Source: Anabaena azotica SJ-1 (GTDB lineage: Bacteria; Cyanobacteriota; Cyanobacteriia; Cyanobacteriales; Nostocaceae). Taken from it: a stretch of 64,000 nt of DNA. A program made the position numbers and the translations under genes. Under the pieces are notes generated by a model. That model saw nothing but the letters and a program-made list of their open reading frames with translations. It had not been told where the DNA came from and did no database searches. The stretch covers positions 2,407,817 through 2,471,816 of the forward strand of contig NZ_CP178454.1 in the NCBI RefSeq assembly GCF_047275885.1. The letters run 5' to 3'. Of this stretch, positions 4,554 to 63,751 are shown piece after piece. Numbering within the stretch: the stretch's first letter is position 1; every line of letters begins with the position of its first letter.

Positions 4554-4624
4554 AAAAATACTACTCATTTTCTACTCACTGAAAGCCCGAAAACCTTGGC
4601 TGGAGAGGGTATAACTATGATTAT

Positions 4625-6019
4625 TTATTTTCCGATACAAAATCTACTAAAAATCCGATCCAAAACTGATTCCGTAACTTCTTCTCCGGTAATTTCTCCC
4701 AATGCATAAATAGCTCCCCTTAAATCAATTGTCCAAAAATCTAATGGTAATTGGTCGATAATTGTTTTTTGTACTTGTTCTAAATCAATCTTTGCTTTTG
4801 TTAAAGCTGCGGCTTGTCTTTGATTAATGGCTAAATCCATATCAGCAGCTTGCACTTTTCCGGCTTGGACTATTTCTAAAATCGCAGTTTCTAAACCGTC
4901 AATTCCTTTATTTTGGGCTGCGGCTGTGGCAATTTTGGATTTGGGATTTTGGATTTTAGATTGAAGAGTTTGTTTTTCTGTTGCTGAAATCAGATCAATT
5001 TTGTTAATTACCAAAATCACCGGACGGTGTTTTACTTGTTCATAAATCTCTTGGTCTGCTTGTGTCCAACCTGCGGAAGCGTCAATGGTAAATAATACCA
5101 AATCAGCCGCACTAGCAGCACGATGCGATCGCTCTACGCCAATTTTCTCTACCTGGTCTGCTGTTTCCCGAATCCCGGCTGTATCTAAAACCTGTACAGG
5201 AATTCCCCCCACAACTAGCTGAGATTCAACTACATCACGGGTTGTACCGGGTAAGTCTGTGACAATAGCGCGATCGCTCTGACTCCAAGCATTCAATAAA
5301 CTGGATTTTCCCACATTGGGACGACCAACTATAGCTACTTTTAACCCGGTTCGCAATAATTCACCTTGATCTTTTGTGGCTAATAACTTAGTTATTTCTA
5401 ATGTAACTTGATCAATCTCAGAAACAATTCTTTGCTCATCTAACGGTGGTAAATCTTCTTCAAAATCAATTCTAGCTTCAATTTCCGCCAAAATATCTAA
5501 ACATTGAGCGCGTAAATTTCTAATTGGTTGAGCTAATTTACCCTGTAACCCAGCTAAAGCCGTTTGTGCTGCTTGGGGTGATTTTGCACCAACTAAATCT
5601 GCGATACTTTCCGCTTGGGTTAAATCCAAACGTCCATTTAAAAACGCCCTTAATGTAAATTCTCCTGGTTGCGCTAATCTCGCACCATTTTCTAAACATA
5701 ATTGCAATACTTGTTGTACAGCCATTATTCCCCCATGACAATGAAATTCCACCACATCTTCACGGGTAAAAGAACGGGGTGCTTTCATAATCAGTAACAA
5801 AGCTTCATCTACCAGTTGCTTTGTTTGGGGTTGACGGATGTAACCATAAAGGATGCGGTGACTTTCCCACACTTGTTTTCCAGGTGCAGAAAATAGAGTT
5901 TGAGCGATCGCTAATGCTTGATCACCAGAAACCCGCACAATCCCCACACTACCTTGTTGAGGGACAACAGCAGTAGCTATAGCAGCGATCGTTCCAGTAT
6001 TAGCTAACAGTTCCGACAT
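4625..6019 (-). CDS. mnmE: tRNA modification GTPase MnmE (TrmE).
   Basis: G-domain motifs ([23 protein letters not shown]) and the diagnostic C-terminal CIGK tail. Confidence 0.9.
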
Positions 6020-6043
6020 GAGTGTTCAGGTGACAGGTGACAG

Positions 6044-6300
<257 letters not shown>

Positions 6301-6424
6301 TAACTCCTGACTTACTCCGACAGGTGACAGTGATAACTGACCTACAACGTTAATAGTAATAGTAATATTTATCTAAAGGGTTAATTAACAATAATAACGC
6401 CGTACTTGAGAGAGGGAATTCACT

Positions 6425-6625
6425 GTGGAGCAAACAATTAACTGCGCTGAAGCTTGCGTTAACGGGTGTGTTTTAGGTGATAAATGTCCGAATATCGAAT
6501 CTAGAGAAGCCGTTTCTAAGTTTATCGAAGAGACTTCTTTAGACAAAATGCTAGAAATGGCTGAAGAGAGACTGAAGAAAAAAATGATGGAACCACCAAA
6601 ATGGGTATTTCCAGAAGATCCATAG
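6425..6625 (+). CDS. Small Cys-rich hypothetical protein (66 aa).
   Basis: Compact ORF with a CAEACVNGCVLGDKC motif, lying in the mnmE-hflX intergenic region. The antisense ORF 6385..6648 was rejected. Confidence 0.4.
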   Translation: MEQTINCAEACVNGCVLGDKCPNIESREAVSKFIEETSLDKMLEMAEERLKKKMMEPPKWVFPEDP

Positions 6626-6951
6626 TTTACCACCTGACACCGTTGCATTTTGGATCATCTCCTAAAAGATAGAGTGTCCAACCCAAACCTTGTTGTAAAA
6701 TAAACATATAGAACATATAGAAAGATTAGGGGGGGCCAGTTTACTGGTCAGAAACGCCTATAGAGACTATCTTCGGAAATCTCCAAGGTTTAAAGTCCAG
6801 CCAGCTGAAACAACTACAGCGGCTGTACCACCAGCGTATATCGGGCGATCGCATTACCACACCAGAGTTCGCCCAACGTCTGGCTGCAATTAGCACGGAA
6901 TTAAATCAGCCTATATGTGCCTACCTCAACCGTCGCGGACAAGTCATCCGG

Positions 6952-8499
6952 GTGGGGGTAGGCACTCCACGTCAAACCCAAATTCCACCTCTAGAACTGC
7001 CCCGTTACGGTGCAGAACGTCTGAGCGGTATCCGTTGTATAGCTACCCATCTCAAGGCAGAACCACCAAATGAGGCAGCACTGACAGCGATGGCGCTACA
7101 ACGGTTAGATGCCCTAGTAGTTCTCAATATTACCGGCACGGGATTTACTAGAAGGGGTGGGGGTTCAACTGGGTACGTCAAAGAAGCTTATTTAGCTCAT
7201 TTGTTAGCCAATAGCAAACAATTGGTTTTAACTCAATCATCGGGAATCACCATCCCAGACGCAAACCTATATTCCAGCGTATCGCCACCTCTAAGTTTAG
7301 ATGCGATCGCCGACCAGGATTTTCTGGACTTGGTGGAAAGTCTAGAAGCAGAATTCAGTCGGGAATATATCGCCCAGGAAGTAGACGCTGACCATGATCG
7401 CGTCGTCATCGTTGGGGTATTAACAGATAAGATGACTTCCCAACAGTTCCAAGACACCATACTAGAACTAGCGCGGTTAGTAGATACAGCCGGTGGAGAT
7501 GTCTTGCAGACGCTACAACAAAAGCGATCGCGCATTCATCCCCAAACTGTCATTGGTGAAGGCAAAGTCCAAGAAGTAGCCCTCACAGCCCAAACCCTGG
7601 GAGCCAATCTTGTGGTTTTTGACCGCGACCTGTCACCCGCTCAAGTCCGCAACCTAGAAGCGCAAATAGGTGTCAGAGTTGTTGACCGCACAGAAGTAAT
7701 CTTAGATATCTTTGCCCAACGCGCTCAATCTGGTGCAGGTAAATTACAAGTCGAACTAGCACAGTTGGAATATATGCTGCCACGACTCACCGGCAGAGGT
7801 AGAAGTATGTCCCGGCTAGGGGGTGGGATAGGGACCCGTGGACCTGGTGAAACCAAACTGGAAACGGAACGGCGAGCAATTCAAAAGCGTATATCTCGAT
7901 TGCAACAAGAAGTTAACCAATTGCAAGCACATCGTTGTCGGTTACGTCAACGGCGACAACATCGGGAAGTTCCTTCAGTTGCCTTAGTGGGTTATACCAA
8001 CGCTGGCAAGTCTACCTTGCTCAATACCCTCACTAACGCCGAAGTTTATACAGCCGACCAACTTTTTGCCACACTCGACCCCACCACACGCCGCCTAATT
8101 ATTCCCCATGCGGATACAAACGAACCACAGGAAACCCTAATTACGGATACAGTAGGGTTTATTCACGAGTTACCTAACTCCTTAATGGATGCCTTCCGCG
8201 CCACCTTGGAGGAAGTAACAGAAGCAGATGCCCTCATTCATTTAGTGGATTTATCCCATCCTGCTTGGTTGAGTCACATTCGTTCAGTTCGGGATATTCT
8301 CGCTCAAATGCCCATAACTCCGGGTCCGGCGTTGGTTGTATTTAACAAAATCGATCAAGTCGATAGCGAAGCCCTGGCTTTAGCAAGGGAAGAATTTCCT
8401 CTGGCGGTGTTTATTTCTGCCAGTCAGCGTTTAGGGTTGGAAACCTTACGCCAGCGTCTATCCCAGTTGATTCAATATGCTGTAGACGACGATTGTTAA
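6952..8499 (+). CDS. hflX: GTPase HflX with a long cyanobacterial N-terminal extension.
   Basis: HflX N-domain (..HPQTVIGEGKVQEV..AQLEY..GGGIGTRGPGETKLE) plus G-domain motifs (GYTNAGKSTLLN, DTVGF, NKID). The frame stays open to 6730 upstream with no ATG/GTG/TTG, so the true start is uncertain. Confidence 0.85.
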   Translation: MGVGTPRQTQIPPLELPRYGAERLSGIRCIATHLKAEPPNEAALTAMALQRLDALVVLNITGTGFTRRGGGSTGYVKEAYLAHLLANSKQLVLTQSSGITIPDANLYSSVSPPLSLDAIADQDFLDLVESLEAEFSREYIAQEVDADHDRVVIVGVLTDKMTSQQFQDTILELARLVDTAGGDVLQTLQQKRSRIHPQTVIGEGKVQEVALTAQTLGANLVVFDRDLSPAQVRNLEAQIGVRVVDRTEVILDIFAQRAQSGAGKLQVELAQLEYMLPRLTGRGRSMSRLGGGIGTRGPGETKLETERRAIQKRISRLQQEVNQLQAHRCRLRQRRQHREVPSVALVGYTNAGKSTLLNTLTNAEVYTADQLFATLDPTTRRLIIPHADTNEPQETLITDTVGFIHELPNSLMDAFRATLEEVTEADALIHLVDLSHPAWLSHIRSVRDILAQMPITPGPALVVFNKIDQVDSEALALAREEFPLAVFISASQRLGLETLRQRLSQLIQYAVDDDC

Positions 8500-8630
8500 C
8501 TGAAAACAGGGTGTGGGGTGTAGGAAAAATATCTAATGCCCCATGCCCCTGCCAAAACCCATTGGTGACAATAAGAGTATTTTTTAGTTTTGGTTAAAAT
8601 TGAAAAGTATTTATTCAAAATCAGAATATT

Positions 8631-8888
8631 ATGACTGCAAAAGTAGAAATTTACACTTGGACTACTTGCCCATTTTGTATTCGTGCCAAAAACTTACTGA
8701 GAAATAAGGGAGTTGATTTCCTCGAATATACCATTGATGGAGATGAGGTAGCCAGAAGTAAAATGGCTGAAAAAGCAAATGGTAGACGTTCTGTACCTCA
8801 AATTTTTATCAATGATGAACACATTGGTGGTTGTGACGATATTTATGCTTTGGATCGTCAGGGTAAATTAGACCCACTACTAGCTTAA
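8631..8888 (+). CDS. grxC: Glutaredoxin (Grx3/GrxC type).
   Basis: CPFC active site in TCPFCIRAKNLL, 85 aa. Confidence 0.9.
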   Translation: MTAKVEIYTWTTCPFCIRAKNLLRNKGVDFLEYTIDGDEVARSKMAEKANGRRSVPQIFINDEHIGGCDDIYALDRQGKLDPLLA

Positions 8889-9108
8889 TAGTGTCTAGTT
8901 AAAATATTCCGGTGACGGGAATTCTGGGGCGGATTTTGCCCCTCATCCAGCCTTGATTTTGGATTTTGGATTGATGACACGGATAAATCTGGGGGCTTGT
9001 ACGATCACGAAATTATTGGTGAGGATTGATAGCAGTAAGCAGTAATCTCACTCAAAAAATCAACTAAACTTAATAACAATTACATTTCCAGGTATTGAGG
9101 TAAAGAGG

Positions 9109-10071
9109 GTGAAACTGGCTTTTATTATTGATCCTATCCATCAGCTTGACCCTGGTCATGATACTAGTGTTGCTCTTATGGAAGCTGCACAACAACTAGG
9201 ACATGAAGTTTGGGTGACACAGACAAACCTGTTGAGTGTAGTGGAAGGAAAAGCTTGGGCTTTGCTTCAGCAGGTGGAACTTGTACCAGTGGAGTTGGTG
9301 GAGGGGCGTTGGATAGCGGCAAATCCTTGGTATAGCTTGAGAGAACGCTCTTTCACCCCCTTAGAAACTATGGATGCTGTCTTTATGCGGACAGATCCAC
9401 CAGTTAATGATGCTTATTTATATGCAACTTACACTCTGGATTATATTGACCAAAATAAAACCTTGGTGATTAATAATCCCAATGGGATTAGAGCCGCAAA
9501 TGAAAAAATGTATGCTCTCCAGTTTAGCCAATGTATTCCCGAAACAATTGTCAGTGCTGATAAACAGGTGATCCGCCAATTTGTAGAGGCCAAGGGTGCA
9601 ACGGTTCTCAAACCACTGGGGAATAAAGCTGGGGAGGGGATTTTATTTTTGCAATCAGGCGATCGCAATTTTAACTCGATAGTCGAACTAAGTACCCTCC
9701 AAGGTCGAGTACCAGTGATGGTTCAAAACTATTTACCAGCTGCAAAAGAGGGAGATAAGCGAATTATCCTGCTCAATGGTGAACCTATAGGGGCGCTCAA
9801 TCGTCTCTCCAGTGGTAGTGATTTTCGCAATAATATGGCTACAGGCGGTACTGTTGCTAAAACGGAGATTACACCCAGAGAGCAGGAAATTTGTGCTTTA
9901 TTAGCAAACAAATTACGCGAAGACGGTTTAATTTTCGTTGGTATTGATGTTATTGGTGGCTACCTCACAGAAGTCAATGTCACCAGTCCTACAGGAATTC
10001 GGGAAATTGATCGCCTAGATGGTACTCACCTTGCTCATCAGGTCATTCAATGGCTAGAACAGCAGGTATAA
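9109..10071 (+). CDS. gshB: Glutathione synthetase.
   Basis: ATP-grasp prokaryotic GshB signature (MKLAFIIDPI..., RIILLNGEP, SSGSDFRNN). GTG start. The grxC-gshB pairing is conserved in cyanobacteria. Confidence 0.85.
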   Translation: MKLAFIIDPIHQLDPGHDTSVALMEAAQQLGHEVWVTQTNLLSVVEGKAWALLQQVELVPVELVEGRWIAANPWYSLRERSFTPLETMDAVFMRTDPPVNDAYLYATYTLDYIDQNKTLVINNPNGIRAANEKMYALQFSQCIPETIVSADKQVIRQFVEAKGATVLKPLGNKAGEGILFLQSGDRNFNSIVELSTLQGRVPVMVQNYLPAAKEGDKRIILLNGEPIGALNRLSSGSDFRNNMATGGTVAKTEITPREQEICALLANKLREDGLIFVGIDVIGGYLTEVNVTSPTGIREIDRLDGTHLAHQVIQWLEQQV

Positions 10072-10280
10072 GCACGAAACAGGTAACAGGAAAAGTTATT
10101 TTGATTCGGTAAAATTGGATAACTAAAAAAGTAATAGCAATAGCAGTCAGAGAGGTATGAGGAAGTTTAGCCATGACTCTAACCAAGCTAAATAAATATT
10201 TAGTTGGTATAATTGGTATAAGCTTTCTCATTTATTCCGCATTATTGAATAATAGATATATCTGTTGTTTCTAAGAGGAT

Positions 10281-10733
10281 TTGACAATGAAAATAGATAT
10301 AAAACCTACATTATATGAAACTGATTATCAACAATGGATAGAAACTACATTACAGCATTTACGTGAACAAAATTTTAATCAATTAGATTTAGAAAGTCTC
10401 ATTGAAGAAATTGAAGCAATGGGTAAAAGTGATAAACGAGAATTACAAAATAGATTAATCATTTTATTAATGCATTTACTAAAATGGAAATATCAACCAG
10501 AAAATCAATCTAATAGTTGGCTATCTACTATTGATGAACAACGTCGTCAAATCTTATTTATTTTTGAAGATAGCCCTAGTTTAGAGAAAAATTATCTAGC
10601 TACAGTTTTTGATAAATGTTATGTAATGGCTCGAAAATCTGCAAGTAAGGAAACTAAATTACCTCTTGATGCTTTTCCTGAATCTTGCCCTTTATCTCAA
10701 GCTGAAATTTTCGATTTAGATTTTTATCCCTAA
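10281..10733 (+). CDS. DUF29 family protein (copy 1).
   Basis: The LYETDY.QW...T...LRE..F..LD.E.LIEEIE.MG.S....L...L..LL.HLLKWKYQPE motif is typical of DUF29. The gene is very AT-rich. Confidence 0.7.
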   Translation: MTMKIDIKPTLYETDYQQWIETTLQHLREQNFNQLDLESLIEEIEAMGKSDKRELQNRLIILLMHLLKWKYQPENQSNSWLSTIDEQRRQILFIFEDSPSLEKNYLATVFDKCYVMARKSASKETKLPLDAFPESCPLSQAEIFDLDFYP

Positions 10734-10759
10734 TTGCTATTTCTAGGAGTATTTATACC

Positions 10760-11336
10760 ATGTTAACTGTAAAAACCCTCTACGAAACTGACTTTAATCT
10801 CTGGTTAGAACAAACGGCTATTTTACTGAAAGAAGGCAAATTAGAACAATTAGATATTGAGAATTTACTTGAAGAAATTGAAGGGATGAGTCGCAAAGAA
10901 AAAGATGCTTTAGAAAGTAATCTAATTCGCGTATTACAACATTTACTCAAATGGAAATATCAATCAGAAAAACGCTCTCCTAGTTGGTCTTATACGATTA
11001 TTGAACACTCTCGCAGATTAAACTAGGACTTACGCAAGTGTCACACCAAACATCTATTTTATGGTGCGTCAGATATCAAATATCTGTTTATTTGCAGGAT
11101 TTATGAAGTTTGACGCACCCTACTAATATGCCAGTTGCGTAAGTCCTGTAAACAAAACCTTTAAAAATAGTCCTAGTCTCAAACGTCATTTTGATGCTGT
11201 ATTTGATGAATGTTACCAAGAAGCTTGTAAAGCTGCTGCTGTTGAAACTCAACTCGCTTTAACTACTTTTCCTGAATTATGTCCTTTTACTAAATCGGAT
11301 GTTTTGGATGTTAATGTTGATGATTATTTTATTTAA
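10760..11336 (+). pseudogene. DUF29 family gene (copy 2) split by a 123 bp MITE insertion.
   Basis: The N-terminal 88 aa end at ...SRRLN. After the inserted element the same frame continues as KTFKNSPSLKRHFDAVFDECY...DDYFI*, which is collinear with copy 1. Confidence 0.75.
11025..11147. mobile_element. MITE-like element with terminal inverted repeats TAGGACTTACGCAAGTG ... CCAGTTGCGTAAGTCCTG and a 5 bp TSD, TAAAC.
   Basis: Perfect TIRs. Flanking TAAAC direct repeats. Excising the element restores the DUF29 reading frame. A nested internal palindrome is present (GGTGCGTCAGA ... TTTGACGCACC). Confidence 0.8.
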
Positions 11337-11444
11337 TAACTGTTTCATACTAAACCTCCTCCCCGCAAGCATACTCTGGTGGGCAAGATGCCAACCCCAC
11401 AATAACTAGACGAATAGATTATTGTTCACTGTTGTTGGAAAAAC

Positions 11445-11505
11445 AGCATATTAGTAGGGTGCGTCAGACTTTATAAATCCAGCAAATGAACAGATTTTTA
11501 ATAAA
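11445..11505. repeat. Degenerate fragment of the same MITE family, in inverted orientation.
   Basis: CATATTAGTAGGGTGCGTCAGACTTTATAAATCCAGCAAATGAACAGAT is the reverse complement of the copy-A core. The TIRs are absent. Confidence 0.5.
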
Positions 11506-11684
11506 TTTAGCTCTTCATTATCAGAAAGTCCTAAATACAAAAATAAACAGACAAAATATGGGGTCAGCACTTCAGTTGCCAACCCCTATTCTGGTGATAA
11601 ACCCTAAAACTAAGAAATTGTATACAGCACAAAACCTAGAACTGAGACTGCAAACTTAATTTAAAATCTCAAATCTACAATCAC

Positions 11685-12971
11685 TTAATTTTTAGGTGGT
11701 GTGCGTCGCCGTTGGAGAAAATCAGGAATATCTAATGCTGGTTTTTCCTTGGGTTCTGGAGTTGGATTTGGTTGATTAACAGTTGGTTGTGGTGTTGGTT
11801 TCCTGGTATTTGTAGGAGTTACAGGTCTAACATTTGCCACGGTTTGTTGTGGTGCGGTTTGGATTTCACCTGTAAAGCCAGTGGCAATCACGGTAATTCT
11901 GACTTCTCCTTGTAGTCGGTCATCAATTACTGCGCCAAAAATAATATTGGCATTGGGATCAACTACTTCATAAATTGTTTCTGCCGCAGCGTTTACTTCA
12001 TGTAGGGTCAAGTCGCTACCACCAGTGATGTTGAAAACAACTCCTCTTGCGCCTTCAATCGAGCATTCTAATAATGGTGAAGAAATCGCGGCGATCGCCG
12101 CTTCTCTGGCTCTAGATTTGCCAGAACTCACACCAATTCCCATCAATGCTGATCCTGCATCTGCCATGACTGCACGTACATCAGCAAAGTCAACATTAAC
12201 TAAACCAGGGATCGTAATGATATCAGAAATACCTTGCACCCCTTGACGCAGGACATCATCAGCGTAGCGAAATGCTTCTTGTACTGGTGTTTGTTCAGGA
12301 ATCACTTCCAACAGCTTGTTATTGGGGATAATGATCAAGGTATCTACCCGACTCTTTAATCCTTCAATTCCTTGTTCAGCTTGGGTGGTGCGTCGTCGTC
12401 CTTCAAACACAAATGGCCGAGTAACTACACCCACAGTCAAAGCACCCATTTCTTTGGCCACTTCTGCCACAATTGGGGCTGCACCCGTACCAGTGCCACC
12501 TCCCATACCGGCGGTGATAAATACCAGGTCTGCACCTTCTAAAGCCGTAGCAATCTCATCGCGAGATTCTTCTGCTGCCTTTTGACCAATGGCAGGATTA
12601 CCCCCTGCACCTAAACCCCTTGTCAGCTTCTGTCCGATTTGCAATCGACTGGGAGCGCCAGCTAAGGTAAGAGCTTGGGCATCGGTATTAATTGACCAAA
12701 ACTCAACCCCAGAGACATCAGATTCAATCATGCGGTTAACAGCATTTCCGCCGCCACCACCGACACCAATCACTTTAATATTGGCGACTCGTCCAGGAAC
12801 AATTTCACCAATGCGGCTGTTTTCAACCATCTTTTTACTATCATTACTTTGTCCGAAGTTCAGCCCAGAACTACCAAAGGGGTTGTTGGAATTAACTGCC
12901 AAAGATAACCCTGGCTGTCCCACGGTTTGGGAATTTTTATAGGTAAGCTCTTGGTTATTATCAAGTGTCAT
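11685..12971 (-). CDS. ftsZ: Cell division protein FtsZ.
   Basis: Tubulin signature [18 protein letters not shown], with the cyanobacterial N-terminal extension and a Pro-rich C-terminal tail. Confidence 0.95.
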
Positions 12972-13818
12972 TGGATTTGTGAAAGGTAGATAAACGACTT
13001 TTTCGAGTTTTCTTTACTTAAGAGTCAACAATATTTTGACACTGGCACAATCTCTGGCACTGTTTTCTATTGTTCTCTTTGCTTCCTAATCCAACAGGAT
13101 TGGATGTGAGATAATTAGCTATCGAATCAGTGTTAAACTTGGGCGATCGCGCAGAGCGCAGTGCCAGAGGCAATAATCGCATAACTAATTCTAGAAAAGT
13201 ATACCTAGCATTGTCCGAATAACGGTCTATATAACTTGATCTAGACATTAATATTTTCAATGCTACGTTGCTGGTTTGTCCCCGTATGTCTTTGTTAAAG
13301 TTATGCTCAATATCCTCCCACTATTTCTACCGAAAATTCTCGTTAGTGATCAATTTTACAAATTTGCTTCTCCTTCTCTGGATTAGTTACTGCTTTTTTT
13401 TGTTTTTATTGTATAATTTGTGCCTTTCTATGACTTAAAATACTTAAAAAAGGCATTTTGTCTGATTTTAGAGTTGATTCTCATCCACAGATGAAAGTAT
13501 TTCTTATACACCTTAGCAGAGTAAAAGCAACTCTACACTCTAAATTCTCAACAAACCAGAGTAGTTGTAAAGATACATGATGCTAAATTTTATCTGCGTT
13601 ATTTTCAGATGGTTAGTAAATGTCACTATCACAGATGGTTGCACCTTATAGATCCAAATTTTGCCTTCTACTGTCTACTCTTTTAGCTTGAAGGCGGAAA
13701 AACTTAATGTTTGGCAATATCAATGTTTGTTTTAAAAGCGTGACTGCTTATCTGTAAAACTAACAAATATTTTTATCCGTAGAAAACTTGTTGATTTCCT
13801 CAAACAAGCAAGAGTTGA

Positions 13819-14766
13819 CTAGGGATCTGGGGAGTTAATCCGCTTTATTTGATTCACTTGTACTAATGGAGAGTCAGGGTTTTTCAGATCAATATATGCT
13901 ATCTGTCCAGGATTAAATTTTGCAGGTAAATGCCGCATTTGAACCAGTACCTTGATTTTTTGAGGTAGTTGGGCATTGGGTACACCAAGATGCACATTTC
14001 CTAGTTCGGTCTTCAATATTAAATTTGTGGGATCTTGACAATCAATTTCTATGACTTTCACAGAACTTTGACTGATAGCTTGATAAATTTGAGTCCAGTA
14101 AGGGCGGTATTGTTCTGGTGAACCCACAACTTTAAGACTGGGTAATTTACCAGTAGGATTTAGGGAAGTGTATTTTTCCAGGGGGATCAAAGCCCCGCTG
14201 GCATCTAGTAAAGCCACATCAGTCTGTTTTCTCTGAGAACTACTATTTTGCAGACATGGTGGTGTTGGTTTTGCAGCAGATTTATCTGAGGATTGGGGTT
14301 GAGTATTGCAGGTGGTTGTTTCTGATAACGGGAGGGTGTGAGTGATTGCCACTGGAAATCTTTCCTGGATTTCAATGACTAAACCAGGGGGAAACAAACG
14401 ACGACTGACAGTTGCTTTTGCGATCGCAGGTTGTTGTTCCAATGTTTCGGCAATAGCAGAAGGTTCAATTCGCCACAAGGATTGGGGATAAGATAGCACC
14501 AGCAGCGACTGAATTGTCTGCTCAGATAACAATTGATGACCCGATGTCATGACTATTTGTGTAGGAGCTTTTAGCACCCACATTGGTTGGATAATCAGCC
14601 AGAGTAATCCACCTGCTAGACCACTCACGGCCAATGTTCGCCAAATAGTCTGGATAATTTTCATCTGCCGTTGCCGACGTAATTTTTTACGCCTCTGGGC
14701 TAAATCCTTGCGGGAAATTGAGACTATACCAGCCATTAAAACCCCTTTTATTTGGTCATTAGTCAT
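13819..14766 (-). CDS. ftsQ: Cell division protein FtsQ/DivIB homologue.
   Basis: Basic N-terminus plus a single TM helix, followed by a POTRA-like region. The position directly upstream of ftsZ matches the conserved cyanobacterial ftsQ-ftsZ arrangement. Confidence 0.6.
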   Translation of the reverse strand: MTNDQIKGVLMAGIVSISRKDLAQRRKKLRRQRQMKIIQTIWRTLAVSGLAGGLLWLIIQPMWVLKAPTQIVMTSGHQLLSEQTIQSLLVLSYPQSLWRIEPSAIAETLEQQPAIAKATVSRRLFPPGLVIEIQERFPVAITHTLPLSETTTCNTQPQSSDKSAAKPTPPCLQNSSSQRKQTDVALLDASGALIPLEKYTSLNPTGKLPSLKVVGSPEQYRPYWTQIYQAISQSSVKVIEIDCQDPTNLILKTELGNVHLGVPNAQLPQKIKVLVQMRHLPAKFNPGQIAYIDLKNPDSPLVQVNQIKRINSPDP

Positions 14767-56159: not shown

Positions 56160-56399
56160 TTGCTAAGGATAAAAACAATGATACAGCCAGCTATTTTAGA
56201 GAAATTAGAAGAACTGCCTGAGTCTCTGCAAACAGAAGTGCTGCATTACATTGAATTCTTAATAGAAAAGCAGACTAAAACCCAAGAACAGCCAGCAAAA
56301 AAACGCCGTGTTGCAGGAACAATGAAAGCAATGTTTGTTCTCCCACTTCCTGATGATTTTGATCAGCCACTTGAGGATATGAAAGAATACATGGAATGA
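56160..56399 (+). CDS. Type II antitoxin (VapB-like, DUF2281-type).
   Basis: 79 aa. Its stop overlaps the start of the downstream PIN gene (ATGA). Confidence 0.6.
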   Translation: MLRIKTMIQPAILEKLEELPESLQTEVLHYIEFLIEKQTKTQEQPAKKRRVAGTMKAMFVLPLPDDFDQPLEDMKEYME

Positions 56400-56782
56400 A
56401 TAGATTACTATTAGATACTCATACTTTGATATGGTTTGTTACCAATGATGCAAACCTACCAGTTTCAACTAGAGAAATGATTGAATCTGCTGAAACTGTT
56501 TTTTTCAGCATTGCCAGTCTTTGGGAGATAGCAATTAAAATAAATATTGGAAAACTAACTCTACAGGGCAATTTTGAAGATATTGAACCTCAACTGATGG
56601 CTACGGGTATAACGATTCTCCCCGTTACATTTAATGATACTGTTCAATTCCGTTATTTACCTCTGCATCACCGTGACCCTTTTGATCGGATTCTCGTTGT
56701 ACAAGCAATAAATAATTCCCTTGTGTTAATTAGTCGTGATGTGGTTTTTGATGCCTATTCTATTCAGAGGGTGTGGTCGTGA
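56396..56782 (+). CDS. vapC: PIN-domain toxin VapC.
   Basis: LLDTHTLIW...the acidic PIN residues (D7, E, D at ISRD), 128 aa. Confidence 0.8.
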   Translation: MNRLLLDTHTLIWFVTNDANLPVSTREMIESAETVFFSIASLWEIAIKINIGKLTLQGNFEDIEPQLMATGITILPVTFNDTVQFRYLPLHHRDPFDRILVVQAINNSLVLISRDVVFDAYSIQRVWS

Positions 56783-56950: not shown

Positions 56951-57331
56951 TTGGAATTTTTATCAATTATGCCAGACGAAAGTATAAGAATTATTACTGA
57001 TGAAATACAAAACGTTTCTGAAACTAGTGGTGAAAAAGCTGCTTGGGATATAGGTAGCAATTGGAATATAGAGGTAAAAACTAAAGCATTGCCTAAAAAT
57101 GCGGCTGATGTTAGTATTTCCAAGCTTGAGCAAGAAATGACTCGCTTTATGCAGGATATAGATGGACTATTTAGCCGTGCAGAAAAACAGGCTGATATGA
57201 AATATATGCAGCTAGATGAAATTGAGTTAGCAGTAGAAATCAATGGTGAGGGACAAGTAAGTTTATTTGGCGCTGGAGCAAAAATTGGTGGAAAACAAGG
57301 TATAACATTGCGGTTTAAACGGCGAGCGTAG
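56951..57331 (+). CDS. Small Gly-rich protein resembling peptidase/trypsin-co-occurring (Trypco/Pepco-type) partner domains.
   Basis: The C-terminal segment IELAVEINGEGQVSLFGAGAKIGGKQGITLRFKRR is a beta-hairpin Gly-rich pattern. It ends 8 nt before the caspase gene. The start may be ATG 56969. Confidence 0.5.
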   Translation: MEFLSIMPDESIRIITDEIQNVSETSGEKAAWDIGSNWNIEVKTKALPKNAADVSISKLEQEMTRFMQDIDGLFSRAEKQADMKYMQLDEIELAVEINGEGQVSLFGAGAKIGGKQGITLRFKRRA

Positions 57332-57338
57332 ATTTAAT

Positions 57339-58958
57339 ATGCCAAAAAATTGGGCGATCGCAATTGGGATTAACCGATATGAGTTTTTGCAACCGCTAAA
57401 CTATGCCAAGCGGGATGCTGAGGTGATGCAGCAATTTTTTGCTAATGAAGCGGGGTTTAATAGGGTCTTGTTTTTCTCCGATGACTCACCTGATATTGAT
57501 GGTAAATCAACTCGTCCTTCTCTTACTAACCTGCTGCGAATTTTCCGGCAGATGTTTGAAACACCGTTTATGACTGCTGGAGATAACTTCTGGTTTTTCT
57601 TTAGCGGTCATGGTATACGATACGCTGACAGAGATTATTTGATGCCTTGTGACGGTGATCCTGGTGATGTGGAAAAGACAGCTATTGCTATTAGTTATAT
57701 CAGTGAACGTTTGCGTCGCTGTGGTGCTGATAATGTCGTCTTGATATTAGATGCTTGTCGTAATCAGGGTAATCGTTCTGGTGTAGGAATTGGTGATGAA
57801 ACAGCCACACAAGCAAAGCAAACAGGAATTATCAGTATTTTTTCCTGTAGTCCCAATGAATTATCTTATGAAGTAGACACTTTACAACAAGGGACTTTTA
57901 CTTATGCACTTTTAGAAGGTTTAGGTACTCAGGGTAAATGTGCTACAGTGGAGCGACTAAATCAGTATTTGAGCCATCGAGTACCTGAACTTAATCGTCA
58001 ATATGGTAAACCTCGACAAAATCCCTATACCATTGCTGAACCAGTCACAAAATCTCATCTGATTCTTTTACCGCAGTATGCAACCTTGCACGATATTTCA
58101 ACTCTAAAAAATGATGCTTATCAAGCTGAAGTGAGCAAAAATATAGATTTGGCAGAACAACTTTGGATTCGTGTGTTAGCTGTAGCATCAGGTCAAGATT
58201 TAGAAGCTATAAAATCACTACAAAGAATTGAAAGAGTGCGGATAGAAAATTCTAAATTACCTTGGACATTAACAACTAAGAATCAAAATCAGGATCAGAT
58301 TTTTGGTGTTAAATCTATTTACTCTATAATATCTAGTAAACCTAAGCCCTCCACAGCTAAAATATTCTTCACTTTATATCAAAGTATAGGAGTTCTAGTA
58401 GTATTAAGTTCAATATTTGTCTTGTTTTCCATCAGAGAAAAATTTGTGATACTGAATTCTAAAATACATCCTTCTCCGAGTCCATCAATTACTGAGACAT
58501 CTGTGTTGAGAAAAACCCAAGATAAAATTCAAGTTTCTCCAAATTCATCGACTAACCAAGAAAATTCGTCAGCATCTTCAAGTGGTTTTTTCTATTGTGG
58601 TGTAATTAATAATACACCAGCAACTATATATCAATCTTCCACCGGTAATGAATTAGCATTTATTCTTTGGGTTTCTACATATTTTAATGATTCTGGAAAT
58701 ACTCCTCAAAAACGCTGTCAAGAAGTATCAAGTCGGTTTCAAAGGTTACAAAGTAATGGAACACTAAATTATATAGTTCCTGGATATTTAGATGGATACC
58801 AGGCTTTGTGTGCCTCTAAAACTTCTAATAATCCAATTATGGAATGCAGACCAGACAATTTGATAATGTTACTAAGACCATCTGATAACCCTACCGAAAT
58901 TATTAATAATATGACTAAATTAAATAACAACATCAGTTCAAAACCAATTAAATTATAG
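57339..58958 (+). CDS. Orthocaspase (C14 peptidase) fused to a TM segment and a Cys-containing C-terminal domain (COP23-like?).
   Basis: Caspase His (FFFSGHG) and Cys (ILDACRNQG) dyad regions. A TM helix (IFFTLYQSIGVLVVLSSIFVLFSI). The tail carries motifs FYCGV, RCQEVSSRFQ and CRPDNLIMLL. Confidence 0.8.
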   Translation: MPKNWAIAIGINRYEFLQPLNYAKRDAEVMQQFFANEAGFNRVLFFSDDSPDIDGKSTRPSLTNLLRIFRQMFETPFMTAGDNFWFFFSGHGIRYADRDYLMPCDGDPGDVEKTAIAISYISERLRRCGADNVVLILDACRNQGNRSGVGIGDETATQAKQTGIISIFSCSPNELSYEVDTLQQGTFTYALLEGLGTQGKCATVERLNQYLSHRVPELNRQYGKPRQNPYTIAEPVTKSHLILLPQYATLHDISTLKNDAYQAEVSKNIDLAEQLWIRVLAVASGQDLEAIKSLQRIERVRIENSKLPWTLTTKNQNQDQIFGVKSIYSIISSKPKPSTAKIFFTLYQSIGVLVVLSSIFVLFSIREKFVILNSKIHPSPSPSITETSVLRKTQDKIQVSPNSSTNQENSSASSSGFFYCGVINNTPATIYQSSTGNELAFILWVSTYFNDSGNTPQKRCQEVSSRFQRLQSNGTLNYIVPGYLDGYQALCASKTSNNPIMECRPDNLIMLLRPSDNPTEIINNMTKLNNNISSKPIKL

Positions 58959-59108: not shown

Positions 59109-59555
59109 TCAATCACCAAGAAAATTCTGATCTAATATTTGCTCTATTGTAAAATGACAAGATGTAGGAAATGTAGAAACTGGTAAACCTGTTTCCTCAC
59201 TGGCTTCCATTACAGCACGAGGATAACATTGAGTGAGGAGTTCTGTTAATTGAGGCTTCAAGCTAGGACTATCTTGTAATGCTTCTTCGATTTCAAAACG
59301 ATTGTCTCTGATAGTGATTTGCCAACTTTTAGAACGCTTCTCAGGTTGATATTGCCATTTAAGTAAGTGCATGACAATTAATCTTAAATAGCTTCGCAAG
59401 GCTTTCTTTTCACTCCGTCCTAAAGTTTCAAGTTCCTCAATTAAATTTTCAATATCTACAGCTTGAAATTGATGCTCTCGTAATTTTTCTATGGTAGTTT
59501 CAAGCCATAGAGAATAATCTTGATCGTATAATGTTGCTTGAGTTTGAAGTTTCAT
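59109..59555 (-). CDS. DUF29 family protein (copy 4).
   Basis: LYDQDYSLWLE...LLKWQYQPEKRSKSWQITIRDNR core. Confidence 0.7.
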   Translation of the reverse strand: MKLQTQATLYDQDYSLWLETTIEKLREHQFQAVDIENLIEELETLGRSEKKALRSYLRLIVMHLLKWQYQPEKRSKSWQITIRDNRFEIEEALQDSPSLKPQLTELLTQCYPRAVMEASEETGLPVSTFPTSCHFTIEQILDQNFLGD

Positions 59556-59761
59556 GGCTTTTTATACTGTAAAATCTAGCATTTCTCCAGCCTTAATCCT
59601 ATTCTACAATCATCATCTCAATCTTTTAAATTTCGGTATGTTATGACGTTAGTTTATATGTAGTAGGTATCATTGGTCATAAGTAAAAAAAAAGAGCCAA
59701 TAACCAATGGCTACAGATTGGTAATTTCTGCTAAATATTTTTCAAATAAACAAATTCACAC

Positions 59762-60337
59762 TCAGCTTTGATAATCTGAAGAGAAAGCGTTTTTTCTCAT
59801 ACTTATGAATTTGTTGATACTGCCAATTTCTAATAAAGCAGAGCGCCAATCCCAAAAATCAGGAGCGCGATAGATAAAATAGCTAATTAAAAATGGACGC
59901 GCCAAAAATACAAAACTAATGGGAATTGTATCTCTAAACAGTTCTCTTTTTTGATTTAAGTGATTTAAGATGTGCGGTACTTTAGTTAAATTAGTAAATT
60001 TATCTTCTGTAATTTGTCCAAAATTTTCTTTTTCATATTGATAGAGTGAATGTTCTAAACCTGTAATTAATAAAACATCAAATGGTTGATTAATATAAAG
60101 CTCAAGCACTCTTTCATATAAAGTATCTATTGGCTCTATTAAACGCAAAACTTCGACTTTCTTATTTGGCAAATCATGGATTATTTTGGTAATTATTTTT
60201 TCATCGTCTGAAGGTTTAGACTGGACAAAATATAAGCCAAATTTTCTGTTGCGCGTCAGATGGCTAATTAAGTCTTGATATTCTTCTTTTTCATCAGGGA
60301 GTAAGTCTTCATCCAAATGGCTATAATTTTTCATCAT
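59762..60337 (-). CDS. Uncharacterised alpha/beta-type 'domain X' protein, translationally coupled to the upstream NTPase.
   Basis: 191 aa. It is paralogous to the N-terminal ~170 aa of the TPR protein at 62180..63751 (shared blocks GLYFVQ, VLRL.EP.D.LY, D.LLI.GLE.SLY.YEK.NFG.ITE, VP.ILNHLNQ.RE.FRD, RAPDF.DWRS). Confidence 0.7.
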   Translation of the reverse strand: MMKNYSHLDEDLLPDEKEEYQDLISHLTRNRKFGLYFVQSKPSDDEKIITKIIHDLPNKKVEVLRLIEPIDTLYERVLELYINQPFDVLLITGLEHSLYQYEKENFGQITEDKFTNLTKVPHILNHLNQKRELFRDTIPISFVFLARPFLISYFIYRAPDFWDWRSALLEIGSINKFISMRKNAFSSDYQS

Positions 60338-61659
60338 GGAAGTTTTTCTATAGCTTCTTTAAATTCCTGAATACCTTGAATAAGTGGGTGAATATCGTAC
60401 CAGCGTTGCATTTCCCCTTCTTCATCCAAGTACCGATACTCTAACAGACAGCGATTAAACATCAAACTCCGATACTGATCATCGTTAATTATCCGCTTAG
60501 AACGGGATACTTCTGCTAACAAACTCCATTGATGGTTTTCTACAGCACGGCGATAGGTGTCTCTAGCTTGCGTAATGGCGCGTCGAACTGCTCTTTGGGA
60601 AATTGGCAAATCTTGAGTGCGTCCAATCGCATCCTGAGTTAACAATAACAAATTTCTGACATGACCTCCACTCATTAAACAAAGTTGTTCTAGGGTTTCT
60701 GGACTGTCAAATATTGCGGTTTCTATAGGTTTATCGGTCGAAAACTGTTTAATTCGCCGCGAAATCACTTCTTTAACTTTATTTATTCCAGGTTGATAAA
60801 TTTCACCTTTGGGAGTACGAACCATTACCATTGGTAAAATTTGAGGATCACCGTATATATCACGTAAATCTGTTGCTCTTGTGGAATAGACCATCGCAAT
60901 GGGTACAGTATAAATTAGGTGACAATCTAAAGATTTTAGTTGTTCACACCGATCTAAAAAAACTTCTTCATAATTTGTACGTTCACCATCTTTAACTAAA
61001 ACCATTCGATCTAAGTTGTCAACAATTACCGCTAGTTGATTACAGTTAGCAGGTAGACGCTTTTTGACATCCGCCAGAAACTCATTTAAAACTTTAATTA
61101 AAGTGACAGTATGAGGATTTACTCTTTCTCTAATTTCTTGACGTAGCTCAGGAACGGCTCTTAAATTTGCTGTTAATTTAGCAAACTGACAAATTTGCAG
61201 TTCTACATTCATGTCCTCAATCTGAATTTCCGTTAGTGCCAAGTCTTTTAAATCTTGCCAACGATCTTTAAGCCAATTTAGCACTGGTTTAGGATTACCC
61301 ATTGTTCGTAATTCTTGCAGTAACCGCCGAGTACAAGCAAGCAGAATGTCTGTATATTGGGCATCTTCTGAATCAATATCTTCTTCATCGGCAGCAAAGT
61401 AAACTACATAACATTGTCTTGCTTCTAAATATTCTTTTAATCTCAGTAATTCTGTGGATTTACCTGCGCCTCTATGACCAGAATATAGTTGACAAGTATT
61501 TTGATTTGCTAATTGAATACGATTTCCTAGTTCTTCTAGAATATCTGCATCTCCTCGCACAGCTTGACAGTCTACGTAATTAGGATCACCTGCGGGTAAA
61601 GGCTGAAAAGGGTTAAAAGCATTGTAGAGGTTTTTGAGTAATTCAGAATTATTGGTCAT
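60334..61659 (-). CDS. STAND/ORC-Cdc6-like AAA+ P-loop NTPase without sensor repeats.
   Basis: Walker A (LYSGHRGAGKST), Walker B (LAVIVDNLD), and a Cdc6-like lid/winged-helix region (GGHVRNLLLLTQDAIG...). Its stop overlaps the start of the domain-X gene (ATGA). Confidence 0.75.
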   Translation of the reverse strand: MTNNSELLKNLYNAFNPFQPLPAGDPNYVDCQAVRGDADILEELGNRIQLANQNTCQLYSGHRGAGKSTELLRLKEYLEARQCYVVYFAADEEDIDSEDAQYTDILLACTRRLLQELRTMGNPKPVLNWLKDRWQDLKDLALTEIQIEDMNVELQICQFAKLTANLRAVPELRQEIRERVNPHTVTLIKVLNEFLADVKKRLPANCNQLAVIVDNLDRMVLVKDGERTNYEEVFLDRCEQLKSLDCHLIYTVPIAMVYSTRATDLRDIYGDPQILPMVMVRTPKGEIYQPGINKVKEVISRRIKQFSTDKPIETAIFDSPETLEQLCLMSGGHVRNLLLLTQDAIGRTQDLPISQRAVRRAITQARDTYRRAVENHQWSLLAEVSRSKRIINDDQYRSLMFNRCLLEYRYLDEEGEMQRWYDIHPLIQGIQEFKEAIEKLP

Positions 61660-62008
61660 AGGTAAACAACTTAGGTTCTTGGGTATTAATGAGACTAAAA
61701 AAATAGTAAAAATAAGCAGCGGTAAACAAGCAATTCAATTTTAAGCGAAGAAAGTGAGAATGTCATATAGCAATCTGGTTTTGTTGCTGGAATTACTTAC
61801 GCGGCTAGGGAATAGGGAGGAATTTTTTCAAGAATTAAATAGGAGGCTTATAGGACTTCCAATACCGCTCGGTTAATAGGTTAATATTTTTTGTAGCTTG
61901 GGCTTACCTGAAGGGAGTCCAAAAAGGCTTGTAAATGTTGGGTGATCTCTATGACTTACTTAGTGAAGATTCCTGAAAATAACTAACCTACATGATTTTA
62001 TTTTTTGC

Positions 62009-62119
62009 TAGGACTTACGCAAGTGTCACACCAAACATCTATTTTATGGTGCGTCAGATATCAAATATATGTTTATTTGCAGGATTTACAAAGTCTGACG
62101 CACCCTACTAATATGCTGA
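62009..62119. mobile_element. Third, right-truncated copy of the MITE family, flanked by a 36 bp direct repeat.
   Basis: The left TIR and core are identical to copy A up to ...CTACTAATATG; the right TIR is missing. CTGAAAATAACTAAC(C/T)TACATGATTTTATTTTTTGC is present on both sides. Confidence 0.7.
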
Positions 62120-62179
62120 AAATAACTAACTTACATGATTTTATTTTTTGCGCTTAACCGATAGGTATTGATAGAAATG

Positions 62180-63751
62180 CTATATTTTTAATTGCATTAA
62201 AGCTTGAAACCTTTTATCTTCTCGAATACAATCAAAATCAAGATCAGTTTTTGCCCTTTTTAAAACTTCCGCTGGTTGGAGACTAATTGCTTGTTGCAGG
62301 TTTTCTAATGCTTGCTCAATTTCACCATGAAGAGCATAACAGCAAGCTTTATTATACCAACCATAATTATCATCGGGTTTTATTTTTAGGGCTTGGTCAT
62401 AAGAAAAAATTGCTTCTTCAGTACGTCCTAAATCATCAAGTGCATTGCCCCGGTTATTCCAAGCATAGTGGTCATTAGGATTGAGTTTCAGGGCTTGATC
62501 ATAAGAAAAAATTGCTTCTTCATTACGTCCTAAACTTCGTAGTGCGATTCCACGATTATACCAAGCGTAGTAATCATCAGGTTGAATTTTTAATGCTTCG
62601 TCATAAGATAAAACTGCCTCTTCATTGTGTCTTAAATTCCGCAATGCTATACCCCGATTATTCCAAGCATAATGGTCATTAGGTTTATATTTTAAAGCTT
62701 CATTATAGGATAAAATTGCTTCTTCATTTCGTCCTAAATTCCGCAGTGTATTGCCAAGTTCGTACCAAGCATAGTGGTCATGAGGGTTATGTTCTAGAGC
62801 TTCATTATAGGATAAAATTGCTTCTTCATTCCGTCCTAAATTTCGCAGTGCATTGCCTCGATTTTTCCAAGCATAGTGGTCATAAGGTTTAATTTTTATT
62901 GCTTGGTTATAAGATGAAATTGCTTCTTCATTGTCTCCTAAATTCAATAGTGCATTTCCACGGTTGTACCAAGCATAATGGTCATCTGGTTGAAATTTTA
63001 GTTCTTGTTCGTAGAATGTAATTGCGGTTTCGTACTCATGTGCAGAATAAAGTAGATTTCCTAGTTCAAATAGTAAACTGGCTCTGTTACTATCTGTTTG
63101 ATGTTTTTCTGTAAGCAGTTCTTGGATTTCTAGAACTTTTTCAATTTTTTCTTCTGGAGTAAGTTGCAGATATTTTTCATAATCTCCTTCTAATAGAAGA
63201 CGACGAGATTCTTCTTCTACTAATTCTGGTGTTGTTGGTAATTCATATACTCCAGATCGCCAATCAAAAAAATCAGGAGCGCGATGAATTAAATAGTTAA
63301 GTGAAAATGAACGCAATAAAAATACGAAGCAAAATGGAAAATCATCTCTAAATCTTTCGCGTTGTTGGTTGAGATGATTTAGTATTGGCGGCACTTTGCT
63401 TAAATTTATAAATTGACCTTCAGTGATTTCACCAAAGTTTCTTTTTTCATATTTATATAAAGAATATTCTAGACCTTTAATTAATAAGATATCAATTTGT
63501 TGGTCTTGAATGCAATTAGTTATTTGTTGATATAACTTATCAACTGGTTCAAATAAGCGTAATACGGCAATTTTTTTATGGGGAATATCCTGGGGAATTT
63601 TATTAATAAAACGGTCAGATTCCACAGGATTACATTGTACAAAGTATAAACCAAATCCTGATTTCCTTTCCACGGCGCAAAGTAAATCTTGATAAATTTC
63701 TTCAGGATCTGGAGGGAAATCTTCATCCCAGGTACTGTAATTAAGTGTCAT
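62180..63751 (-). CDS. 'Domain X' fused to an array of about 11 TPR repeats.
   Basis: The N-terminal 170 aa are homologous to the 59762..60337 product. The C-terminal TPRs show the DHYAWYNRGNAL.NLGRNEEAI.SY pattern. Confidence 0.8.
   Translation of the reverse strand: MTLNYSTWDEDFPPDPEEIYQDLLCAVERKSGFGLYFVQCNPVESDRFINKIPQDIPHKKIAVLRLFEPVDKLYQQITNCIQDQQIDILLIKGLEYSLYKYEKRNFGEITEGQFINLSKVPPILNHLNQQRERFRDDFPFCFVFLLRSFSLNYLIHRAPDFFDWRSGVYELPTTPELVEEESRRLLLEGDYEKYLQLTPEEKIEKVLEIQELLTEKHQTDSNRASLLFELGNLLYSAHEYETAITFYEQELKFQPDDHYAWYNRGNALLNLGDNEEAISSYNQAIKIKPYDHYAWKNRGNALRNLGRNEEAILSYNEALEHNPHDHYAWYELGNTLRNLGRNEEAILSYNEALKYKPNDHYAWNNRGIALRNLRHNEEAVLSYDEALKIQPDDYYAWYNRGIALRSLGRNEEAIFSYDQALKLNPNDHYAWNNRGNALDDLGRTEEAIFSYDQALKIKPDDNYGWYNKACCYALHGEIEQALENLQQAISLQPAEVLKRAKTDLDFDCIREDKRFQALMQLKI

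Follow-up and report, generated by a model that had tools for sequence, protein, structure and literature searches.

A conserved cyanobacterial NTPase and its domain X partner: a putative split AAA+ switch with a clade-specific three-gene form

How can an ATPase that carries no sensor of its own be connected to one? This question is raised by three minus-strand genes located in a 64-kb stretch of a contig of Anabaena azotica SJ-1 (hereafter the window, to which all coordinates given without a locus label refer). In the order of transcription, they encode X-TPR, in which a domain here called X precedes an array of tetratricopeptide repeats (TPRs), then, after a spacer of 520 nt, a nucleoside triphosphatase (NTPase), and finally short X, which consists of domain X without TPRs. 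A sequence-only reading of this DNA had presented the three genes as a split STAND-like module, and they were found exactly at the coordinates it had given (Table 1). With a probability of about 0.55, our analysis favors the view that they form the clade-specific three-gene version of a conserved two-gene split AAA+ switch, in which domain X would dock on the NTPase as a pseudo-protomer and of which the output would be regulatory or related to assembly.

Domain X was identified by none of the Pfam, NCBIfam, PADLOC or PDB sequence searches and has no family of its own in Pfam or NCBIfam. The predicted model displayed the topology alpha0-beta1-alpha1-beta2-alpha2-beta3-alpha3-beta4-alpha4-beta5, which is that of the AAA+ alpha/beta core. 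Structure comparison yielded scores of 10.5 for archaeal Cdc6/Orc1, 10.2 for a protein related to pol III gamma, 10.1 for TnsC and 10.1 for the inactive AAA+-like domain of Sir3. Independently, a Foldseek search with the modelled domain returned almost only AAA+ proteins. The earlier description of an unrecognizable fold, possibly of TIR, SLOG or receiver type, had to be abandoned, the fold search proposed along with it having pointed elsewhere. Alignments A1-A3 placed the X domain of X-TPR in one family with the modelled short X. In all 38 aligned sequences the GK[ST] P-loop was absent and the beta1-alpha1 loop was reduced to just 2-3 residues (Q/C-S/N-P); owing to this loss of the Walker A P-loop, X was considered a pseudo-ATPase. 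Thirteen positions never vary among the 38; G93 and E95, which follow beta3, belong to them, and so does the motif R157-A-P-D-F-x-D-W. In the model, R157 closes helix 148-157 (alpha4) at its C-terminus, ahead of strand 167-170 (beta5), a location that may correspond to that of the arginine finger of AAA+ proteins. As judged from the model, domain X is thus a degenerate AAA+ alpha/beta core devoid of P-loop, lid and winged helix.

In the NTPase, the Walker A (residues 61-69) and Walker B (VIVDNLDR, 211-218) motifs were invariant across 32 orthologues, D214, N215, L216, D217 and R218 among them, and so was the motif GGHxR (331-335), a candidate sensor 2. Its structure combines an AAA+ core, a lid and a C-terminal winged helix, as in ORC/Cdc6 initiator-clade AAA+ proteins; the best structural matches of both the NTPase and X were ORC/Cdc6 subunits and DNA-bound TnsC. 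STAND proteins scored nearly as high as ORC/Cdc6 (CED-4 11.4, ZAR1 11.0, Avs3 9.7, MalT 9.5). The Pfam matches (AAA_16, NPHP3_N, ATPase_2 and ORC-CDC6-like) were all below threshold, and membership of ORC-CDC6-like (PF24389) was not supported, with 12.7 bits against a cut-off of 27 bits and over residues 324-375 only. Like X, the NTPase has no family of its own in Pfam or NCBIfam, and PDB sequence searches with either protein gave nothing useful. The protein ends past the winged helix without any repeat sensor, and its orthologues are nearly all of about 441 aa. The Pfam scan and the structural matches therefore agreed with the initial portrait of an ORC/Cdc6-like, STAND-like and sensor-less protein with Walker A and B motifs.

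Is the association of these two proteins peculiar to this strain? More than 3,397 database relatives of the NTPase were found. The best 120 were 65-91% identical to it, and came from Nostocales, Microcoleus, Moorena, Symploca, Crinalium, Xenococcaceae and Oculatellaceae. With short X as query, only 3 relatives of X were found by single-sequence search, against 277 by profile search, all of them cyanobacterial. An exhaustive search with a hidden Markov model (HMM) gave 1,300 X clusters at 50% identity, drawn from proteins of 143-1,215 aa in which X almost always occupied residues 1-200, with a repeat array behind it in essentially every cluster, and TPRs were present in 77 of 78 long members of the family. 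The neighborhood was then surveyed in 93 cyanobacterial loci (92 fetched loci and the window) scanned with the X-HMM. In 82 of them, the NTPase was directly followed, at -4 nt, by a gene beginning with X, the recurrent linkage that the sequence-only reading had proposed to look for. These partners ranged from 177 to 965 aa, the usual one being an X-TPR of 400-960 aa with a highly variable TPR copy number. From this recurrence, the ancestral unit was deduced to consist of two genes, the NTPase followed by X-TPR.

The flanking genes were also conserved. Crinalium and an Oculatellaceae genome shared the order psbA, radical-SAM, PRK, a lineage-specific gene, NTPase, X-TPR and hflX, and Cylindrospermum retained psbA, radical-SAM, NTPase, X-TPR and hflX. 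Of the 73 loci with sufficient flank, 45 had hflX downstream in the same orientation. Judging by this synteny, the NTPase and X-TPR genes are a conserved, vertically inherited chromosomal pair in cyanobacteria. Crinalium and the Oculatellaceae genome also encode, about 50 nt upstream of the NTPase, a 467-468 aa protein (L009 5543-6949; L094 4546-5949) that is glycine-rich, with a hydrophobic N-terminus, collagen-like GxxGxxG runs and no Pfam match. It was rejected as a third component, as it contains no X and is not present in the Nostocales loci.

In the window, the junction between the NTPase and short X genes reads cc-ATGA-tg, where the start ATG of short X shares bases with the stop TGA of the NTPase. 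The 4-nt overlap reported at the outset is thus real, and short X is translationally coupled to the NTPase through it. Over its full length, short X could be aligned with the N-terminal part of X-TPR (192 aa at 52% identity, E=1e-67), which bears out the other early claim, that of a paralogue about 520 bp upstream.

How, then, did three genes arise from two? An X-TPR gene followed by those of the NTPase, short X (177-212 aa) and HflX was found in Trichormus azollae, Okeanomitos, Sphaerospermopsis, several Anabaena and related metagenome-assembled genomes. These genomes, from at least 10 species, are exactly those in which the NTPase is at least 90% identical to that of the window. In Cylindrospermum, a full-length X-TPR occurs on both sides of the NTPase (L007, C. 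stagnale PCC 7417: 4139-6517 and 8323-9885; L023), with 792-810 aa for the upstream copy and 520 aa for the coupled downstream one, which is likely to be the intermediate between the two- and three-gene forms. A neighbor-joining tree of X, built without bootstrap, placed the upstream X-TPR copies near the mainstream Nostocales X-TPR and short X in a clade of its own with long branches. Short X retains a vestige of the X-TPR linker and all 13 family-invariant residues, including R157. The scenario to which these comparisons point is a duplication of X-TPR in the Trichormus/Anabaena/Sphaerospermopsis/Okeanomitos clade, followed by the loss of TPRs from the coupled copy, giving rise to short X. 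Domain X does exist in both standalone and sensor-fused forms, as first described, but the standalone form is clade-specific and the ancestral state had two genes.

Selection was estimated by the Nei-Gojobori method over ten genomes, as the median ratio of nonsynonymous to synonymous substitution rates (dN/dS). The median values were 0.045 for the NTPase, 0.091 for the X domain of X-TPR and 0.192 for short X (0.09-0.45 over 44 pairs), for which a comparison of the window with T. azollae HNT15244 gave 0.096. Because of these values, short X was considered to be a functional, faster-evolving, TPR-less derivative rather than a pseudogene.

Other arrangements of the same parts were also observed. 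In a recurrent form of 219-222 aa, the TPRs of X are replaced by a conserved tail (VTIDI..LYQQLK..ISA.A.QAVALYLAHLE) that will be called ribbon-helix-helix (RHH)-like. In Iphinoe sp. (L070 6001-9189), the NTPase is followed by X with such a tail and by an overlapping gene combining TPRs, a receiver domain and a LuxR helix-turn-helix (HTH; GerE). In Pleurocapsa (L099 6001-7615), X with this tail overlaps a downstream TPR gene and, in the UBA11369 genome (L102 6001-8518), the overlapping TPR gene that follows it carries a HetZ-like domain.

Plasmids carried only paralogues of the NTPase, with 33-36% identity over the full length, and no X was detectable on them by tblastn. In Acaryochloris marina pREB2 (L096 5989-12788; genes AM1_RS31125/31130), the paralogue overlaps by 4 nt the gene of a 1,830 aa protein in which an X-homologous N-terminus (hhalign 90.6%) precedes an nSTAND1 NTPase and a series of 14 WD40 repeats, and the pair sits among NACHT, HicAB and integrase genes. 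Nostoc ATCC 53789 pNsp_c (L097 5917-13009) encodes an analogous X-WD40 partner of 1,844 aa (hhalign 95.5%). In Calothrix NIES-4101 plasmid4 (L098 5989-13284), the genes after the paralogue encode an AAA_16-TIR protein and a WD40 protein. As X heads both TPR and WD40 partners, it was regarded as a general N-terminal adaptor joining repeat-bearing proteins to this NTPase family. Of the two roles initially offered, adaptor or effector domain, the former was retained, and no effector domain was found. Given their gene content, these plasmid loci are good candidates for real conflict systems, and the wider NTPase family includes members that look like such systems.

On these grounds, the following mechanism can be proposed. 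The NTPase, an active AAA+ protein of ORC/Cdc6-STAND type, would be produced together with its X-headed partner by means of the ATGA coupling. X would dock on it as a pseudo-protomer, as inactive ORC subunits or clamp-loader delta-prime do with active subunits, and might complete or gate the ATP site in trans, possibly through R157. The TPR array, either a ligand or protein sensor or a scaffold, would thereby be tethered to an ATP-driven switch. Both the physical contact between X and the NTPase and the role of R157 are inferred. In the three-gene clade, where the coupled copy has lost its TPRs while a full-length copy stays upstream, the ATPase could as a consequence pair with either a sensor-less short X or a sensor-bearing X-TPR. 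The output is most likely regulatory or assembly-related: the NTPase would be an ATPase of signal transduction, comparable with MalT/LAL or ORC proteins, rather than a trigger of abortive-infection killing. This preference was based on the lack of an effector, strong purifying selection, vertical inheritance with housekeeping synteny and the transcription-factor variant operons.

Comparison with known systems indicated which parts of this design are familiar. ORC/Cdc6 and the clamp loaders likewise pair active with inactive AAA+ proteins (the inactive Orc2/3, delta/delta-prime and the pseudo-ATPase Sir3). However, the NTPase has no significant sequence match to ORC/Cdc6, X is an alpha/beta core only, and the partner here bears TPRs or WD40 repeats. 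STAND NTPases (NB-ARC, NACHT, MalT and the Avs/AVAST proteins) appear to share a similar core, helical domain and winged helix as well as associated repeat sensors, and the plasmid paralogue partners contain a true nSTAND1 module. In the present case the sensor is on a separate polypeptide, reached through a pseudo-AAA+ adaptor, with neither effector nor PADLOC match, and the group is vertically inherited and highly conserved. 'Split STAND-like' nevertheless remains a fair description of the architecture, considering the sensor-less NTPase, the recurrence of X at -4 nt and its position at the head of TPR and WD40 partners. The three parts of MalT/LAL proteins (STAND ATPase, TPR-like sensor and LuxR HTH) are all found in the Iphinoe operon, but distributed over three genes; the three proteins of the window have no LuxR HTH, and X has no counterpart in MalT.

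Two other cyanobacterial systems were considered. The iSTAND ternary systems are defined by a MoxR-vWA pair and effector domains (Kaur et al. 2020, PMC7159879). They resemble the present genes in using an inactive STAND/AAA+-type domain as a constant adaptor and in their concentration in multicellular cyanobacteria (PMC7159879); identity with them was rejected, since MoxR and vWA genes were not found in the window region or the related loci inspected. In the all4983-all4982-all4981 operon of Anabaena PCC 7120, All4981 is a filament-forming TPR protein whose gene ATGA-overlaps the upstream gene, is co-transcribed with it and encodes a protein binding that gene's product (Springstein et al. 2020, PMC7002697). 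All4981, as derived from the cloning primers, starts with MNSELFQKLAKAQ and ends with ...KIQSSDSNI. These ends matched neither X nor any open reading frame (ORF) in the 92 loci, and All4981/All4982 were rejected as orthologues. No description of the NTPase-X pair was found in the searchable literature. Active-inactive AAA+ pairing and STAND-like NTPases with repeat sensors are known in kind; a pseudo-AAA+ adaptor supplying the sensor in trans, together with its standalone duplicate, is a new variation on these.

Several observations weigh against the proposed switch. The placement of R157 as an arginine finger is based on the order of secondary structures in a predicted model, not on superposition. 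The fold matches of X indicate AAA+ proteins generally and do not resolve a clade within them. A sequence relation between X and the NTPase was undetectable (hhalign probability 0.1%), and the idea that X arose by divergence from the ATPase domain of the NTPase was rejected on the same value. The tail of the 219-222 aa form matched the RHH proteins ParD, AvtR and Omega repressor at levels that are weak and not significant (E 0.04-0.34), and its RHH assignment was not retained. No natural NTPase-X fusion was found, as long NTPase matches carry unrelated extensions; two Rosetta-stone candidates, P0102 (688 aa) and P0038 (526 aa), were discarded for this reason. The diverged paralogues in conflict-like plasmid contexts and the variable TPR number would both fit immune sensors. 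Lastly, Raphidiopsis brookii D9 had no X gene within the 6-kb flanks of its NTPase, so that the NTPase may work without a linked X. Either X-TPR is located elsewhere in this reduced genome or the NTPase needs no linked X.

Two of these proteins also deserve description in their own right. The R. brookii D9 NTPase (L022) is an orthologue with 85% identity and is followed by hflX 46-47 nt further on. The NTPase orthologue P0102 is extended at its N-terminus by about 245 unrelated residues, shows a change of the Walker A motif from GAGKST to GARKST, and may be an inactivated or repurposed copy.

Among the alternatives, an anti-phage or conflict system fared best. It would be a split NLR/Avs-like receptor, in which the TPRs sense an invader protein, X couples this recognition to the NTPase, and oligomerization triggers an unlinked or unrecognized effector. 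The STAND-like fold, the variability of the repeats and the existence of plasmid paralogues keep it a real rival, even though we consider it unlikely. No effector domain was detected by Pfam, PADLOC and NCBIfam scans of the NTPase, short X and X-TPR. With PADLOC, the NTPase matched only PDC-S20 (19.6 bits, E 1.4e-4), X had no match and X-TPR had generic TPR matches only; with NCBIfam, DS41_1 reached 23.4 bits against a cut-off of 370 bits. DS-41 (DefensePredictor) and PDC-S20 were consequently rejected as identities, in agreement with the early statement that no named defense system corresponds to this locus. The further assumption of an accessory conflict locus is at odds with the conserved radical-SAM/hflX synteny, the 65-91% identity maintained by the NTPase across orders and its dN/dS of 0.045, which are features of vertical inheritance alongside housekeeping genes. 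Moreover, a symbiont lineage has kept the module intact. That phages or plasmids carry the orthologue was rejected as well, no phage-borne copies having been found and plasmids providing only paralogues of at most 36% identity. As to the adjacent caspase and Pepco genes, they appear to be there as a result of rearrangement (see below).

A second alternative, which we find more doubtful, is a DNA-acting ORC/Cdc6-like heteromer, where the winged helix of the NTPase and the pseudo-AAA+ X would serve as initiator, loader or chromosome organizer and the TPRs would recruit partners. It can draw on the ORC/Cdc6 subunits and DNA-bound TnsC heading the structural matches of both proteins, on the C-terminal winged helix, on the active/inactive subunit pairing that is the very design of ORC and clamp loaders, on the X variants with an RHH-like tail and on the neighboring TPR proteins with LuxR or HetZ-like DNA-binding domains. 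This case is purely structural, however, and STAND proteins scored nearly equally; the Pfam ORC-CDC6-like match is faint, the RHH matches are not significant, and no link to replication genes or to an origin was observed. Several cyanobacteria have been reported to replicate without need of DnaA. The more specific proposal that the NTPase and X-TPR form a bacterial ORC-like heteromer on DNA, as an alternative replication initiator or loader or a chromosome-organizing factor, is a long shot.

Hardly credible, finally, is the idea that, in a symbiont genome undergoing erosion, short X is just what is left of a decaying gene, a truncated pseudogene, and that the three-gene layout is meaningless: short X does resemble a truncated X-TPR with a linker vestige and evolves about three times faster than the X of X-TPR, but its dN/dS indicates constraint, all 13 invariant residues are kept, and the intact ORF and its ATGA coupling persist in 10 or more species, the majority of which are free-living.

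Table 1. Position of the three genes, their main motifs and associated elements in the window.
Feature	Position	Strand	Remarks
Short X	59762-60337	(-)	191 aa ORF, domain X without TPRs
NTPase	60334-61659	(-)	441 aa ORF; ATPase core, helical lid and C-terminal winged helix
X-TPR	62180-63751	(-)	523 aa ORF; upstream full-length copy with its own upstream region
Domain X of X-TPR	63236-63751	(-)	Residues 1-172 (approximate); aligned with the short X family
TPR array of X-TPR	62267-63085	(-)	About 8 repeats of 34 aa; Pfam and TRF
Walker A GHRGAGKST	61453-61479	(-)	NTPase residues 61-69; invariant, 32 orthologues
Walker B region AVIVDNLDR	61006-61032	(-)	NTPase residues 210-218
R157 codon of short X	59867-59869	(-)	Family-invariant arginine
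Intergenic spacer, 520 nt, X-TPR to NTPase	61660-62179	(-)	
Small repeat element in spacer	61973-62151	no strand	Direct repeats flanking a hairpin
Terminator-like hairpin and T-run	59695-59712	(-)	50 nt past the short X stop; pattern match only
hflX	6760-8493	(+)	tblastn, 94% identity to Okeanomitos HflX

Within the module, X-TPR starts with X (residues 1 to about 172), from which a helical linker of some 50 aa leads to about 8 TPRs, followed by a TPR end-cap. Eight TPR_1 stretches were found by Pfam, along with a match to TPR_END_plus in NCBIfam, and TRF reported a period of 102 nt with 6.4 near-identical copies at 62351-63006, to which a divergent first repeat and the cap are added. The fusion of the paralogue to TPRs was thus correctly recognized from the start, but the repeats number about 8 rather than about 11.

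The part of the spacer next to the NTPase (about 175 nt) was conserved in alignment with T. azollae HNT15244, and the distal part, in which the repeat element is located, was divergent. A promoter-like site (ATGACA-17-TAAAAT, 61766-61738) lies within the conserved part, such sites being as a class no commoner than in shuffled sequence. The hairpin past short X is probably the end of the NTPase-X transcript. The repeat element comprises a 36-nt direct repeat (61973-62008 and 62116-62151) and, between its copies, a 14-nt inverted repeat forming the hairpin arms 62045-62058 and 62094-62107. The 11-mer core of the hairpin, GGTGCGTCAGA, occurred at 5 sites of the window (11063, 11458, 38773, 62048 and 62094) against 0.01 expected, two of these copies making up the hairpin at 62045-62107, and it probably represents a small dispersed palindromic repeat family of the host genome. 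No second full copy of the element was found in the 64-kb window. The element had been called a miniature inverted-repeat transposable element: within these 64 kb its core recurs at three further sites and its 36-mer is restricted to this position. Similarly, the 'AT-rich island' has indeed a lower GC content (34.5% versus about 39.5% for the window), but the difference is only mild.

The surroundings of the module have been rearranged. The NTPases of the window and of T. azollae HNT15244 share 99% identity. In Okeanomitos (L011 8960-15326), hflX, grx, gshB and ftsZ lie just downstream of short X; this segment corresponds to 6712-14044 (+) of the window, while the Okeanomitos module matches 63786-59846 (-). 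The ancestral downstream neighbor hflX is now 51 kb from the module, on the opposite strand. Because of this difference in strand, a single inversion of about 53 kb (from about 6650 to about 59700), with a breakpoint in the X-hflX spacer, was deduced; no repeats were found at either breakpoint. Homology with HNT15244 ends at 59497, within the 5' end of the DUF29 gene, past which the two genomes carry different genes. The adjacency of DUF29 and of the Pepco-caspase genes is therefore incidental: the module does lie beside them in the window, as had been noted, but through a rearrangement of about 53 kb, and in HNT15244 the resemblance does not go beyond the first codons of DUF29.

Two neighboring gene pairs may be of interest by themselves. 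At 56951-58958 (+), the gene of a Pepco protein (126 aa, PF24393) precedes by 8 nt that of a caspase (Peptidase_C14; NCBIfam 'caspase, EACC1-associated type' below cut-off), to which a COP23 domain is fused at the C-terminus. Pepco-protease pairs have been described as latent death effectors activated by proteolysis, a known type of protease-effector defense module (PMC12642450). At 56160-56782 (+), two small ORFs of 79 aa and 128 aa overlap by 4 nt, the latter (MNRLLLDTHTLIWF...) looking like a PIN/VapC toxin.

One consequence of these observations is a caution: a defense function is not to be read from the neighborhood in rearranged symbiont genomes. The reading of X as a P-loop-less AAA+ domain leads to a concrete and testable design, that of an ATPase provided with its sensor in trans via a pseudo-protomer, and the split between sensor-less and sensor-bearing X within one clade would offer a natural experiment on the tuning of such a switch. 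The same design may link a core cyanobacterial gene pair to the plasmid-borne, NLR-like giants in which X is followed by nSTAND1 and WD40 repeats.

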